Origin: a virus | Taxonomy: Duplodnaviria; Caudoviricetes | Strand: one strand, 5' to 3' | IMG/VR virus record: IMGVR_UViG_3300017754_001906 | Span: 1,366 to 65,365 of that record | Length of the DNA stretch: 64,000 bases | Part shown: positions 2,576-7,346 of the stretch, in pieces | How positions within the stretch are numbered: position 1 is the stretch's first letter | Layout of the letters: every line of letters begins with the position of its first letter | Position numbers and translations under genes: made by a program | The notes under the pieces: generated by a model | What the model saw: only the letters and a program-made list of their open reading frames with translations | Database searches by the model: none | Told to the model about the DNA's origin: nothing

Positions 2576-3052
2576 CATTTGACATGCCGAGTGGCTTCGG
2601 CTGACAGAGTTTCGCATTGACTTCTGCTTCGTCTTTGTAGATTAACGCACAAAGGTGACGATGCTCTCTGTCGCACCAGCTCCCCCTCTAAGCCACATCA
2701 GGGGGGGGAGCACGCATATAGCACGAGTCTAATGCCGGGCAACCGGCGCTTGTGCGTGCAATCGTTTGAGCAAGTTGCCCGATCTGTGGAAGACCGCCAA
2801 AGTGCATGGGATTGAGTCGGCAAAGCGCCCTGCGGCGTGGAGAGGCTCTTAACCTCAAGGGTCGTACAGGAGCAGCAGGCTGACGGTGAGTGGACGCTGG
2901 GAGAGGGAACGGCGATAAAGCAGTGCAGGCTGCTCGCCTCTTAACTCTCCCGAATACGCTCGCTGGTCAGTATTACGGGAAAAACCCGTAATTTCCGGCA
3001 ACGAGCGAGATTGCTTACAGTATATGAGCCTGGGGTGCGCCTATTACGTGCG

Positions 3053-3643
3053 TTACTCCGATCGCTGCAAGTAACGTATCACCGTTCGTGTACTAACTCC
3101 CATGATCTTGGCAATTTCAGCGTTCTCTAAGCCTTTGCTGCGCAGCTTAATGGCACGATCAGGTTTCACTCCAGCTTTTACGGCGCCTGGAAGCCTTCCT
3201 CGATAGGCTCCTCTTTCCTTCGCAACTGCGATTCCAGCTGCTTGCCTCTCCTTGATGTTCTGCTTCTCCCACTTCGCCATCGCAAACATGATAGCTGCGA
3301 TCAACTCGCCTATGACGCCTGAGAAGTCGAACTGTTGCGAGGTGCATACGAGGCGAACCTTCTTCTCGCCCCAATCGGCAAGCACTTTAACTCCGTCAGA
3401 CATCGACCTCGATAAACGATCGAGCTTGTAGATCACCACGGTTTTGATAGCACCGTTGAAAATGTCCTTCTGCATCTGCTCGAAGGCTGGTCTCTTGAGA
3501 TCCGATCCATTCGCCTTGTCGATGTACCAGGTGACGCTACTCGGCTTGATACCGTTTCCAGTGAGCCACTTCAAAATCTCTCGCTTCTGGCTAGCCTCAT
3601 TCTGACAATCCGTACTAACTCGAACATACGCTGCTACTGACAT
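3053..3643 (-). CDS. serine recombinase, resolvase/invertase family with C-terminal HTH
   Basis: AAYVRVST (catalytic Ser), VVIYKLDRLSRS, KERQAAGIAVAKERG and HTH AEIAKIMGVSTRTVIRYL; ATG 3643 with AGGAG RBS. Confidence 0.93.
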   Translation of the reverse strand: MSVAAYVRVSTDCQNEASQKREILKWLTGNGIKPSSVTWYIDKANGSDLKRPAFEQMQKDIFNGAIKTVVIYKLDRLSRSMSDGVKVLADWGEKKVRLVCTSQQFDFSGVIGELIAAIMFAMAKWEKQNIKERQAAGIAVAKERGAYRGRLPGAVKAGVKPDRAIKLRSKGLENAEIAKIMGVSTRTVIRYLQRSE

Positions 3644-3687
3644 CGCAAATCTCCTCGCGATAAAAACAATGAACAAACAACAATCGA

Positions 3688-3716
3688 ATGCTACGCTCCG
3701 CAAAAAGTGGTGTCAA
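3688..3716 (-). promoter_or_regulatory. sigma70-type promoter of the resolvase gene
   Basis: Minus strand TTGACA-17 bp-TAGCAT, about 45 bp upstream of ATG 3643. Confidence 0.65.
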
Positions 3717-3744
3717 GTAGGGTGGTAAGCTAAATGTCGCTGAT

Positions 3745-3773
3745 TTGCTGGATTGGGGGAATGCTGGTAAACT
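3745..3773 (+). promoter_or_regulatory. sigma70-type promoter, divergent from the resolvase promoter
   Basis: TTGCTG-17 bp-TAAACT with extended -10 TGn, upstream of ORF 3812. Confidence 0.5.
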
Positions 3774-3811
3774 GGTGATATTGATGTTCCTAACTCGAAG
3801 GTGAACTGTTA

Positions 3812-4108
3812 ATGCGGCGCGTTGAGGTTGTTAAGGGTCAAGAATACGGCTCGTTGTCAGTAATCGAGGAGTTATCCTCTACCGGAAAGCGAAAGTTTCG
3901 CTGCGAATGCTCATGCGGAACGGTAGTCGATGTCAGGCTAGATCACATGAGGAGCGGTCACACGGTGTCGTGCGGCAGGTGCGGAATTGAGCACGCTGGA
4001 AAGAAAATGACGATCAAGGCGTGGGCTGACAAGCATGGAATCAAGGAGTCAACGCTGAGAGCAAGGTTAAAAATCATGGACATGAAGGAAGCTCTTGAGC
4101 GCAAGTAG
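3812..4108 (+). CDS. small Zn-binding/HTH DNA-binding protein related to phage HNH endonucleases but lacking the nuclease core
   Basis: N-terminal GQEYGSLSVI...FRCECSCG...MRSGHTVSCG and C-terminal MTIKAWADKHGIKESTLRARL align by eye with the two ends of the HNH at 5113-5751; no DRIDN...NCRW core. Confidence 0.7.
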   Translation: MRRVEVVKGQEYGSLSVIEELSSTGKRKFRCECSCGTVVDVRLDHMRSGHTVSCGRCGIEHAGKKMTIKAWADKHGIKESTLRARLKIMDMKEALERK

Positions 4109-4229: not shown

Positions 4230-7037
4230 ATGGCATCGACTTTTTACGACCTCGCCCCCAAAGACATCATTGAGAACCTCAAGTGGAGGATTCGTTGCCG
4301 CGAAAGAGCGTTGGTGGACGAAAGATTCAGAAACGCCCTGATTCAGGCGTGCGAAACCGATGTGCTGTTCTTCTTTGCGTTTGCGTTGTGGGTGCATGAG
4401 CCTCGAGCAAAGATCAAGATGAGACCGTTTATCCCGTGGAAACACCAGGAAGCGGTGATTCTTGCGATGGACGATGCGATAACAGAGGCAATGGAGAAAG
4501 AGCACCCAGTTTCGGTGACGGTGAAGAAAAGCAGAGCGCAGGGAGGCACGTACACATACCTCGGTGTGCAAATACGTAGGGCTTTGACGGAAAAAGGCTT
4601 CTCCTCTGGACTTGTTACCCGTAACGAAAAGATGATGGACTCCAAGGACCCGTCTGCGGTTATGAACAAGTTGTCAATGATGCTCGATAAGCTGCCGCTC
4701 TGGATGCTAGATGGTTACGATAGGAATATCACCGACCATACGATCCGCATTCCAGAGACAAACTCCGTATGGATTGGGTTTTCCGCTACGGCTGACGTTG
4801 CTCGGGGCGGCAGAACTACGCTTTTCGCATTCGATGAAGTGGGGTCAGAAGAGTTCATCTCTGGCGGAATTGACTACAAGATCATGAGTTCGGTCGCCCA
4901 TGTTACAAATTGTTGCGCGAAGGGGTCAATGGTTGTTACTGATAGAGGGTTGGTTGCAATCGAGGACGTAAACTTGACCGATAGAGTTTGGGATGGTACA
5001 ACATGGATACATCACAGCGGATGTGTGTATCAGGGCCGAAGGGATGTTATTTCGACGTATGGCGTTGGCCTTACCCCTGATCATAAAGTATTCACAGTTG
5101 AAGGGTGGAGAGATGCCAGCGAAGGATTTGACAGGGCAGAAATTCGGCTACCTGACGGTTATCGAGAGGAATGGATCAACTCGACACAATGCTGCAAAAT
5201 GGAAATGCCAGTGCGAATGCGGCAAGGACGTGGACGTGATAGCTGGGGATTTGAGATCTGGGAACACGAAGAGTTGCGGGTGTCGCCACAGGGAGATGTC
5301 GGCAAAGCAGTTCTTCAAGCACGGAAAGTCTCGGACTCCAGAGTATGTCTCGTGGAGGAGTATGGTGTCACGATGCACAGATCCTCGCCACGAAGCGTAC
5401 CATCGTTACGCAGGGAGAGGGGTTACTGTTTGCGATCAATGGATGGATTTCGAGGTGTTTCTTGCGGATATGGGCTTGAAGCAGGAAGGCTTGGAGTTGG
5501 ACAGGATAGACAACAGCAAGGGTTATTATCCTGGGAACTGTCGATGGGTGACGCGACAGGAGAATTGCAACAACAGGAGGAGCAATCGCTTTATGGAAAC
5601 GTCTCGAGGCGCGATGACCGTTGCGGAGATTTCAAGAGAAGCTGGTGTGACTATGGAAGCGATCCTAGGTCGCATCAAGAGGGGTGTTCAAGGGGACGAT
5701 TTACTGAAGCCACGATCGGGCCAGGGCGGATTGCCGTCTACGACCTTCTGAATTGCGGTCCAAAGCGGGCGTTCACTGTCATTGATGACGATGGGCGTCC
5801 GCTTCTTGTCCATAACTGCGTGTTCCTTTGCTCGACCTTCGGCGCCGACACAGGCGTTTTCTACGAATCCGCAATGGATCCAGACAATCCGAGGGTATTT
5901 CCGCTCGATTGGAAAGACAACCCAGAGCATGCAGCTCTCGCTTACGTCAAGCAGGACGGAGTGGTAAAAGCCGTAAATCCAGAAGAGCAGGATGCGGTTG
6001 ATAATTACATTGCAACGCACGAAAGAGAACTGCGAGCCATCGAGCGAAAAGGGCATAAGATCGAAGGCAAGATTCGATCGCCTTGGTACGACTCACACTG
6101 CCTAATCCCTGGTGCGACTCCGCGATACATAGCCAGAGAGCTTGATATGGACGCCAGAGGCTCGGCTGGAAAGGTGTTTGCAGCGGATCTTCTTGATCGC
6201 ATGAAGCGAGAAAACGCTAAAAAGCCTGTCTGGAGAGGCGTTCCTGTATTCGACAATGAGACTCTTGAGCTGAAAGGTTTAATACCTAGAGAGGATGGAC
6301 CGCTGTCCTTGTGGTTCAAGCCTGGGATAGACAACAGTCCTCCTCTTGGTCCGTTTACGATTGCCTGTGACATCGCCTCAGGAGGGGTCGGTGCTTATTC
6401 GTCCAATTCCGTAGCGTCCGGTATCGATAATAGAACCGGTGAGCAGGTATTGGAGTACACGATCAAAGGGTTAGAACCTCGACCGTTTGCCAGGATGGTA
6501 GTTGGATTGTGTCTGTGGATGCGAAAAGCATTGCTAGGGTGGGAGGATTCCGGGGTTTCAGGAGGGTTTGCTAAAGAGGTCGTCGAGGTATGCTATTACG
6601 GAAACGTCTTTTATCGCGACGTGATGCAGCTCGGATCTCAGAAAAAGAGCCGAAAGGCGGGATTTCCATGCCGAGATGCCGACAAGGCTGACATGTTCGA
6701 GCAGTTCGCCCTAGCGATGGAGCAAAAACGTTACATCCCGCGATCCGAAGAAATGATCGTAGAATGCGGGGAATATGAGTGGGACGGGGCAAAAATCATT
6801 CACGCTCCTACTAAGAATAAGGGTGCCACAGAGAAGAATCACGGTGACAGAGCGATATCAGCTGCAGGCGCATGGCTAGTGTTCGCTACAGACAACGCAG
6901 ACACTAAAGTTGACAGCGATATAGAAACAGGTCAGAATCCTGAATATGGAAGCTTTTTATGGAGAGAGCGACAGGAGCGTAAGTTCAATAGTTCTGAGAG
7001 CCCAAGCTACGGAATTAGGGACGTTCTGCGAAAATAG
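4230..7037 (+). CDS. terL: terminase large subunit, intein-containing (935-aa precursor, about 633 aa spliced)
   Basis: Walker A VKKSRAQGGT, Walker B FAFDEVG, coupling motif restored after splicing (VTN|CVFLCST), RNase H-like nuclease TIACDIASG...HGDRAIS; upstream of portal. Confidence 0.93.
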   Translation: MASTFYDLAPKDIIENLKWRIRCRERALVDERFRNALIQACETDVLFFFAFALWVHEPRAKIKMRPFIPWKHQEAVILAMDDAITEAMEKEHPVSVTVKKSRAQGGTYTYLGVQIRRALTEKGFSSGLVTRNEKMMDSKDPSAVMNKLSMMLDKLPLWMLDGYDRNITDHTIRIPETNSVWIGFSATADVARGGRTTLFAFDEVGSEEFISGGIDYKIMSSVAHVTNCCAKGSMVVTDRGLVAIEDVNLTDRVWDGTTWIHHSGCVYQGRRDVISTYGVGLTPDHKVFTVEGWRDASEGFDRAEIRLPDGYREEWINSTQCCKMEMPVRMRQGRGRDSWGFEIWEHEELRVSPQGDVGKAVLQARKVSDSRVCLVEEYGVTMHRSSPRSVPSLRRERGYCLRSMDGFRGVSCGYGLEAGRLGVGQDRQQQGLLSWELSMGDATGELQQQEEQSLYGNVSRRDDRCGDFKRSWCDYGSDPRSHQEGCSRGRFTEATIGPGRIAVYDLLNCGPKRAFTVIDDDGRPLLVHNCVFLCSTFGADTGVFYESAMDPDNPRVFPLDWKDNPEHAALAYVKQDGVVKAVNPEEQDAVDNYIATHERELRAIERKGHKIEGKIRSPWYDSHCLIPGATPRYIARELDMDARGSAGKVFAADLLDRMKRENAKKPVWRGVPVFDNETLELKGLIPREDGPLSLWFKPGIDNSPPLGPFTIACDIASGGVGAYSSNSVASGIDNRTGEQVLEYTIKGLEPRPFARMVVGLCLWMRKALLGWEDSGVSGGFAKEVVEVCYYGNVFYRDVMQLGSQKKSRKAGFPCRDADKADMFEQFALAMEQKRYIPRSEEMIVECGEYEWDGAKIIHAPTKNKGATEKNHGDRAISAAGAWLVFATDNADTKVDSDIETGQNPEYGSFLWRERQERKFNSSESPSYGIRDVLRK
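4911..5816 (+). mobile_element. intein (302 aa) in TerL
   Basis: C1 in CCAKGSMVVTDRGLVAIEDV (block A), LTPDHKVFT (block B TxxH), AVYDL (block F), LLVHN/C (block G His-Asn, +1 Cys). Confidence 0.92.
5113..5751 (+). CDS. HNH homing endonuclease encoded in the +1 frame inside the intein
   Basis: MPAKDLTGQKFGYLTV...WKCQCECG...LRSGNTKSCGC, EYVSWRSMVSRC, LDRIDNSKGYYPGNCRWVTRQENCNNRR, C-terminal HTH; own ATG (5113) and TGA (5749-5751). Confidence 0.9.
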   Translation: MPAKDLTGQKFGYLTVIERNGSTRHNAAKWKCQCECGKDVDVIAGDLRSGNTKSCGCRHREMSAKQFFKHGKSRTPEYVSWRSMVSRCTDPRHEAYHRYAGRGVTVCDQWMDFEVFLADMGLKQEGLELDRIDNSKGYYPGNCRWVTRQENCNNRRSNRFMETSRGAMTVAEISREAGVTMEAILGRIKRGVQGDDLLKPRSGQGGLPSTTF

Positions 7038-7264: not shown

Positions 7265-7346
7265 CGAAAAATCGTTGGATTACTAGGCTGGAGTTAGAAC
7301 CCAGTCGAAATTGATCGGAAAATATCCGTTTTTATTTCGGCTGTGG

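Follow-up and report, generated by a model that had tools for sequence, protein, structure and literature searches.

A gene resembling those for phage terminase large subunits is interrupted, in an uncultured freshwater phage, by what is very probably a composite selfish element, namely a class-1-type Hint intein that carries, between its blocks B and F and in the +1 frame, a separately translated gene for a nuclease of the HNH superfamily. The host gene occupies positions 4230..7037 of the plus strand (935 amino acids with the intein counted) of the window, the stretch of 64,000 nucleotides analysed here as a whole (positions 1,366 to 65,365 of the IMG/VR virus record IMGVR_UViG_3300017754_001906). 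The window derives from a single metagenomic contig of an uncultured virus, complete-looking and 65 kb long, and its stretch was found again in freshwater and lake metagenomes of at least seven other studies. The intein spans 4911..5816 and the nested open reading frame (ORF) 5113..5751, both on the plus strand like all features described below unless stated otherwise. These coordinates, proposed in an initial annotation of the window, proved exact, as judged from ORF translation and from about 70 empty alleles that fix the boundaries. Selection acts on both frames. Homologues of the element form a large family, with members at several sites in genes for terminase, family-A DNA polymerase and SNF2 helicase.

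For a comparison with empty alleles, 80 homologous genes were taken from viral contigs. About 70 of the 80 are uninterrupted, the residue equivalent to residue 227 of the host protein directly abutting the C-extein Cys in the context IMSSVAHVTN followed by C(V/I/A). In contig L008, for instance, the empty site reads GTCACAAAC up to the junction and TGTGTCTTT after it. The N-extein (4230..4910, 227 amino acids, ending VAHVTN) reaches 91% identity with its counterparts in the uninterrupted genes of L006-L009, and the match stops exactly at residue 227. The C-extein (5817..7037, 406 amino acids) begins with Cys+1 (CVFLCSTFGA) and is 89% identical to uninterrupted relatives. Since residue 227 adjoins the C-extein Cys in the empty alleles, the insert has a length of exactly 302 codons, and Cys+1 is the host gene's own. 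The insertion site, hereafter VTN/C, would fall within the ATPase core; the Walker B-like motif LFAFDE precedes it by about 25 residues.

Read from 4911 to 5816, the insert shows CCAKG, TPDH, VYDLLNCGP and VHN, in that order and followed by Cys. In an alignment of 37 members of the intein family, C1, T55, H58 (both of TPDH), V276-Y277-D278, N281, G283, H301 and N302 are invariant, in agreement with the intact splicing motifs noted in the initial annotation. The sequence hallmarks of class-1 inteins are all found, with C1, T55/H58, D278, H301-N302, Cys+1 and a precise in-frame insertion. An AlphaFold2 model of the intein was built on the family alignment. Its predicted local distance difference test score (pLDDT) was 92-97 over residues 1-85, which form the N-terminal splicing lobe (4911..5165, with block A Cys1 and block B TPDH at 5073-5084), and 91-94 over residues 270-302, in the C-terminal splicing lobe (5718..5816, with VYDLLNCGP of block F at 5736-5762 and VHN of block G at 5808-5816). 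Residues 94-268, by contrast with these lobes, had a pLDDT below 50 and no secondary structure; this intein-frame linker (5190..5714, residues ~94-268) is stop-free and predicted to be disordered, and it is precisely this middle region that is missing from relatives of 107-135 residues. When compared with 48,161 PDB representatives, the model had as its 27 best structural matches only inteins and Hint-fold autoprocessing domains (hedgehog, BIL, Vint); the Mtu RecA intein 2imz ranked first (Z 13.2, 112 residues aligned, root-mean-square deviation 2.5). Because every Hint structural alignment spans model residues 1-302, both lobes are predicted to fold together. Pfam and NCBIfam searches with the intein sequence gave no match, and phmmer against PDB sequences gave only a marginal one (RecA intein block B, E ~0.07). 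By every test applied to its sequence and model, the insert 4911-5816 is an intein, and it would be expected to splice.

The +1 frame opens at 4993; within it, the nested ORF runs from ATG 5113 to TGA 5749-5751 (212 amino acids). As the initial annotation had remarked, the ATG lies just past block B and the TGA within block F; the elements of APSE-1, Caulobacter and Shewanella phages described below have the same arrangement. The product is a putative homing endonuclease of HNH-like (His-Me finger) type. It matched the PHROG "HNH endonuclease" family phrog_374 with E 4.8e-70 and, weakly, the endonuclease VII family phrog_1035 (3e-06). We found 1,326 homologues of similar length, mostly unannotated, and relatives in 1,087 phage records, mostly as free-standing genes such as orf78 of Pseudomonas phage D3. 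A blastn search against phage genomes returned as its sole match an 83-nt stretch like Staphylococcus phage HNH genes.

The AlphaFold2 model of the nested protein (mean pLDDT 93.1) has three parts. The N-terminal small beta domain (5113..5283, residues 1-57) is CapR-like, with a match to PF21817 CapR at E 6.7e-05, below cutoff; its Cys cluster (C34, C36, C55, C57) is invariant, and it gave small-barrel structural matches with Z up to 5.8. The central nuclease-like domain (5320..5589, residues 70-159) carries the motifs LDRIDN, Tyr138, NCRW and EN..N, and its best structural match in the PDB is PacI (3m7k, 76 residues aligned, 21% identity). The C-terminal domain (5590..5706) is helix-turn-helix (HTH)-like, with model helices at 170-177, 181-189 and 194-198 and a weak match to HTH_AsnC (E 0.042). 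A Foldseek search of the PDB with the whole model returned nothing at E<=0.001, which is probably due to the extended three-domain shape. Against PDB sequences, a profile built from 68 HNH sequences gave no improvement over phmmer, and no significant sequence similarity to PacI was detected. It should be noted that the CapR-like domain also recurs 5-11 times in tandem in long proteins (P0126, P0140, P0136 and others) and that the whole nuclease is found as 2-3 tandem copies in P0124 and P0125; from its sequence, the Cys-rich domain looks like a modular DNA-binding unit.

Directly before ATG 5113 is a purine-rich, Shine-Dalgarno-like stretch, GGGTGGAGAG (5103..5112), which in the intein frame encodes a conserved G-W-R. 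Many members of the family have GGNTGGARR ahead of the ATG, a sequence that encodes intein G-W-K/R as well, and most relatives examined have a start codon at the equivalent position. Among the genes of the window, GGAG, GAGG or AGGA is present in 7 of the 33 first-start contexts, many of those starts being uncertain.

Selection on the two frames was followed by comparison with L086, a contig from a different metagenome whose intein, like that of the window, is 906 nt long. The two inteins differ by no indel and are 82% identical. Counted by intein codon position 1/2/3, their substitutions number 5/5/29 in the N lobe (4911-5112), 76/23/17 in the overlap and 1/1/5 in the C lobe. Since position 1 of the intein codons is position 3 of the HNH codons, purifying selection acts on the HNH frame within the overlap and on the intein frame to either side of it. 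Over the overlap (5113-5748), the HNH-frame translation shares 84% of its amino acids with that of L086, compared with 59% for the intein frame and 57% for the third frame. The intein interior, in which the initial annotation had seen no endonuclease motifs, is conserved about as much as the non-coding third frame. The codon-position switch was repeated in five other pairs, with terminase as well as polymerase hosts.

Openness of the intein frame was assessed by a stop-avoidance test in which the HNH protein and its codon composition were fixed and synonymous codons were permuted in 20,000 shuffles. Under these conditions 12.1 intein-frame stops are expected and 0 were observed, a value reached by 0 of the 20,000 shuffles, whereas the third frame has 12 stops over the overlap against 10.3 expected. 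Accordingly, an NNT codon precedes an AA-, AG- or GA-initial codon in 0 of 61 cases, compared with 46 of 151 elsewhere. Stop avoidance was likewise found in seven other elements, APSE-1 among them. The initial annotation had put the chance of an unselected frame staying open at about 4e-5 and had supposed that selection holds the host frame open; the shuffles bear out the latter and show the former to be of the right order or conservative. Homologues conserve both frames, and the reading could not be overturned on the ground that only one of them is kept.

To place the element among known phages, the whole precursor was compared with phage genomes by tblastn. Matches were found in the polymerases of Caulobacter phages GB2A, RW, RLK and KcrB, of Shewanella phage SFCi1 and of APSE phages, the polymerase inteins being 28-33% identical to the precursor (E down to 6e-30) with the intein-frame middle included; no actinophage matched the intein. 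Each of the matched Caulobacter, Shewanella and APSE polymerase inteins contains a nuclease homologue of 213-224 amino acids in the +1 frame, and these ORFs begin just past block B and end within the block F VYD(L/I)LN codons. That the ORF starts and stops at the same places in the inteins of APSE-1, Caulobacter and Shewanella phages, and likewise in dozens of viral contigs, argues for an old composite element that moves as a unit. The initial proposal that a nuclease gene had invaded a mini-intein therefore stands as regards the free-standing type of the nuclease and the dual-coding interior, but not as a recent local event.

A scan of viral and prokaryote contigs with the intein alignment gave 85 loci. 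The nuclease is in the +1 frame in about 45 of these and in the +2 frame in about 20, the latter in polymerase genes; none has it in frame. Out-of-frame elements are present in more than 60 viral contigs, and four bacterial or metagenome-assembled genome (MAG) contigs match too. The bacterial records with a two-frame intein, in polymerase-like genes, are L173 (chromosome of Parapusillimonas sp. JC17) and the MAGs L172, L175 and L176; these host genes presumably lie in prophages. The +2-frame, phrog_374-type nuclease was seen in the polymerase-A inteins of L145, L147-L158, L160-L164 and L169-L171 (at ~3001-3867 in most), with E 1e-20 to 1e-27 against the HNH profile made here and E 4e-33 against phrog_374. 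The two placements suggest, at the sequence level, either independent capture or frame-hopping. Within the family, four sites are occupied in terminase-like genes and several in family-A polymerases; an SNF2 helicase is also a host, and a P22-type portal gene contains a mini-intein version that lacks the nuclease. A full-library phmmer search with the intein-frame sequence matched 1,385 cluster representatives (E<=1e-10). Of the 150 listed with the best scores, most align over all 302 residues, as would be expected only if the overlapped nuclease DNA is shared in the same relative frame. When in-frame intein-HNH fusions were sought among proteins longer than 371 amino acids, only tandem arrays of HNH or N-terminal domains were found, with no Hint motifs, a weak negative.

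Several members of the family depart from this layout. The terminase-like gene of L093 has two family inteins (1762-2514 and 3001-3906), each with a +1 nuclease ORF, the second at the VTN/C site of the window. In L094 (1381-2283) the nuclease frame has a stop codon and the intein frame is still open, L149 (3001-3540) and L143 have internal deletions that leave nuclease remnants, and L142, L138, L165 and L167 are mini-inteins of 107-135 amino acids. From their sequences, L094, L149, L143 and the mini-inteins form an apparent decay series.

The initial annotation had called for terminase homologues with and without an intein at VTN/C, and both were found. In a tree built on the exteins, the six VTN/C occupants are isolated tips among empty relatives, which amounts to 6 changes, of which at least 4 are forced by well-supported branches; L093, L098, L099, L105 and L109 are long-branched from imperfect intein removal and their placement was ignored. 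Such scattered occupancy is better explained by several gains through homing than by several exact losses. Empty alleles are up to about 90% identical to the intein-bearing gene. On the N side, flank identity to L086 climbs toward the junction from 67% to 85%, which could reflect a co-conversion tract or plain site conservation and was not used as evidence.

The active site of the nested protein bears directly on its function. Its LDRIDN, GY, NCRW and EN..N motifs align with the beta-beta-alpha-Me motif of I-HmuI (1u3e; VDHKDG, NLRW, IN..N), a marginal match in the phmmer search of PDB sequences (E 0.17). The position like D130 is invariant, as are N142 (of NCRW) and N154 (of EN..N), both aligned with the I-HmuI motif, and Tyr138, which lies between the two core strands of the nuclease domain. 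An Asp/Glu-Arg pair is kept in nearly all of about 120 homologues. PacI lacks the catalytic His and employs the Tyr of an omega loop instead (His-Me finger classification, PMC5714182). Because PacI too is His-less with an omega-loop Tyr and Tyr138 is invariant here, we propose as a working inference that the nested protein may have a PacI-like, Tyr138-based active site.

Several points weigh against the explanation as a composite element with an active nuclease. Arg131 occupies the position of the catalytic His75 of I-HmuI and is invariant across the nested clade and about 120 free-standing homologues, so that the canonical general-base His is missing. No Pfam or NCBIfam HNH, HNH_3 or Endonuclease_7 model matched the nested protein at E<=0.1, and the structural match to PacI is just middling (Z 6.5). 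The Shine-Dalgarno-like motif is partly set by the intein G-W-R codons and its spacer from GGAG to the ATG is just 2 nt, which makes the evidence for ribosome binding weak. The terminase identity of the host gene is modest, drawing on weak matches to hidden Markov models and by tblastn together with gene order: the protein matched the terminase large subunit family phrog_5989 at E 6.7e-06, an intein-less relative did so at E 3.9e-05, an Acinetobacter phage terminase large subunit was found by tblastn (28% identity, E 7e-12), a portal-like gene lies downstream at 7311 (SU10_portal, E 2.7e-05, a weak match), and searches of Pfam, NCBIfam and PDB sequences with the host protein gave no match. Finally, we infer splicing, internal initiation and cleavage, the demonstrated part being the constraints at the sequence level. 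The initial description of a full HNH endonuclease thus holds in so far as the gene is real, under selection and matched by a PHROG HNH family, but not as regards the catalytic His, which is absent family-wide, or the standard HNH models.

These properties of the nuclease could also mean that the nested protein is a His-less, DNA-binding derivative of the His-Me finger fold, acting as a regulator or site-recognition factor, in an element that is immobile or moved by another enzyme. The Arg found throughout the family in place of the catalytic His and the absence of a Pfam HNH match speak for it, as does the listing by Jablonska et al. 2017 (PMC5714182) of some His-less His-Me finger groups without activity. 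Nevertheless, we consider this unlikely, since PacI, the best structural match, is an active nuclease with an omega-loop Tyr in place of the His, since Tyr138, in what would be the equivalent loop, and the D130-like, N142 and N154 positions are invariant, and since the gene behaves as a homing gene, being mostly free-standing and scattered in its 1,087 phage records and occupying VTN/C sporadically. That the intein splices and the nuclease gene is a decaying or untranslated relic, only the host frame being maintained, would suit the decayed relatives (the stop of L094, the remnants in L149 and L143), the nuclease-less mini-inteins and the weak ribosome-binding site. A relic is nonetheless quite improbable in the window, where 76 of the 116 overlap substitutions against L086 fall at HNH codon position 3, identity is far higher in the HNH frame (84%) than in the intein frame (59%), every family-invariant residue is present and the model reaches pLDDT 93.

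An insert that does not splice and is kept in the mature terminase as a tolerated loop finds a precedent in ShiLan-type out-of-frame HNH insertions, which have no splicing domains (PMC11855218). Here the splicing residues are invariant and under purifying selection, the lobes fold as a Hint domain in the model, and a loop of 302 amino acids in the ATPase core, so close to LFAFDE, would hardly be tolerated, which leaves this explanation very little probability. The fact that the window is one metagenomic viral contig could be taken to mean that compensating indels, from sequencing or assembly, mask an ordinary in-frame intein-HNH fusion. In Logan contigs of four other freshwater studies, which extend over 4700-6000 and both frame transitions, there are 0 gaps and 0-8 substitutions, and an assembly artefact is thereby excluded. 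L086, at 82% nucleotide identity, has equal length and frames; more than 60 independent loci are out of frame and none in frame, and cultured phages have the same layout. The possibility of such an error, foreseen in the initial annotation as grounds for withdrawing its reading, is practically nil. A packaging role for the nuclease, like that of the HNH partners of HK97-type terminases, was considered and rejected because the same element is present in polymerase and helicase genes and close relatives do without it.

Taken together, these results favour the composite element, for which the following course can be proposed. The host gene would be translated straight through, with some 175 intein-frame residues over the nuclease gene predicted to form a disordered tether between the two lobes. 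The lobes would fold together and the intein would excise itself, restoring VTN-CVF, as its catalytic residues, its Hint fold and the likely essential nature of the host gene suggest. Ribosomes may start internally at ATG 5113 to produce the 212-amino-acid nuclease, consistent with the position of the start in most relatives and with selection on the HNH frame. In a mixed infection, the nuclease might then cut an empty allele near VTN/C, and repair would copy the whole element into it; such homing is in keeping with its scattered distribution.

Inteins with an out-of-frame endonuclease have been described before. Gosselin, Arsenault & Gogarten (bioRxiv 10.1101/2025.01.02.630785) reported actinobacteriophage inteins whose homing endonuclease, of endonuclease VII-like type, is encoded out of frame on the same strand, terminase being one type of host protein. 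As in the window, these non-canonical inteins combine a splicing domain in the extein frame with another ORF, of the same strand, that overlaps an in-frame stretch devoid of structure, and the origin proposed for them is likewise the entry of a free-standing endonuclease gene into an intein. They differ in their nuclease (InterPro endonuclease VII, against a phrog_374, PacI-like, His-less protein in the window), in its frame ('frame 3' against +1) and in their hosts (actinobacteria, against a freshwater uncultured phage for the window). A cyanobacterial dnaX intein, first noted by Gorbalenya 1998, has an out-of-frame LAGLIDADG endonuclease (bioRxiv 10.64898/2026.09.14.751524). It shares with the window element the overlapping frames, the disordered in-frame stretch, the frame-dependent selection, the coexistence of empty, mini and full alleles and the proposed secondary invasion of a mini-intein, but it differs in its LAGLIDADG nuclease, its cellular host gene and its intein family. 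The ShiLan domain of actinophage DNA methylases, which hides an HNH out of frame (Arsenault et al. 2025, PMC11855218), resembles the window element in having an HNH-type gene out of frame within an open host frame, Zn-finger flanks and an I-HmuI-like extended architecture; it has no splicing domain and is thought to be retained in the protein, whereas the window element is flanked by a complete Hint domain. With respect to PacI (3m7k/3ldy), the top fold match of the central domain, the window nuclease is likewise His-less and has a conserved Tyr in what may be the corresponding loop, and it has in addition the N-terminal Zn/beta and C-terminal HTH domains.

The element of APSE-1, a Hamiltonella phage, is homologous to that of the window: it consists of the P45 intein and P46, which is annotated as an HNH endonuclease nested within P45. 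The nested nucleases of APSE-1, Caulobacter phages and Shewanella phage SFCi1 are 39-44% identical to that of the window and are also in the +1 frame; their elements sit in family-A DNA polymerases, in contrast to the terminase-like gene here. The APSE-1 P45 intein has been known since 1999, and an APSE comparative paper mentions just the differential loss of the intein. In the library searched, we found no paper that treats the polymerase inteins of APSE-1, Caulobacter and Shewanella phages as two-frame inteins, and none on a family that joins Hint to a His-less HNH. As out-of-frame intein endonucleases with other nuclease types were already published in 2025-26, the novelty is limited, and lower than the initial annotation had assumed for this host group and site. 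The window element extends that published concept, differing in nuclease family, frame and host group. The chances seem to us evenly balanced that it represents an undescribed, very large two-frame family, made of a Hint intein and a His-less, possibly PacI-like, Tyr-dependent nuclease, spread over terminase, polymerase A and SNF2 helicase genes in phages of several bacterial phyla and shaped by repeated capture or frame-hopping between +1 and +2.

Two neighbouring ORFs deserve mention. Just upstream of the terminase-like gene lies an ORF of 98 amino acids (3812-4108, plus strand) whose product is similar to the Cys/beta domain at the N-terminus of the nested nuclease (E 5e-10, with 45% identity over residues 6-65; phrog_374, E 2.4e-12) but has no nuclease core. 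Many relatives without the intein (L006, L008, L015 and others) have similar ORFs upstream too; the ORF of the window is therefore a resident gene outside the mobile element, and its product is possibly a small-terminase-like DNA-binding protein. Further upstream of the packaging genes, and divergent from them, is a serine-recombinase-like ORF (3053-3703, minus strand) with AYVRVSTDCQ in its N-terminal part and an HTH in its C-terminal part.

Elements of this kind escape both gene callers and surveys of inteins, since their nuclease ORF lies within another gene and the stretch in frame with the intein resembles a decayed endonuclease. The nuclease is possibly of a new class of site-specific enzymes with a non-His active site, and cultured systems in which to test it are available in the Caulobacter phages on CB15 and in Shewanella SFCi1. 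The family offers a clean natural case of overprinting, in which selection acts on the sequence of one frame but only on the openness of the other, and it supports the view of intein origins in which the splicing domain came first and the endonuclease was captured later.

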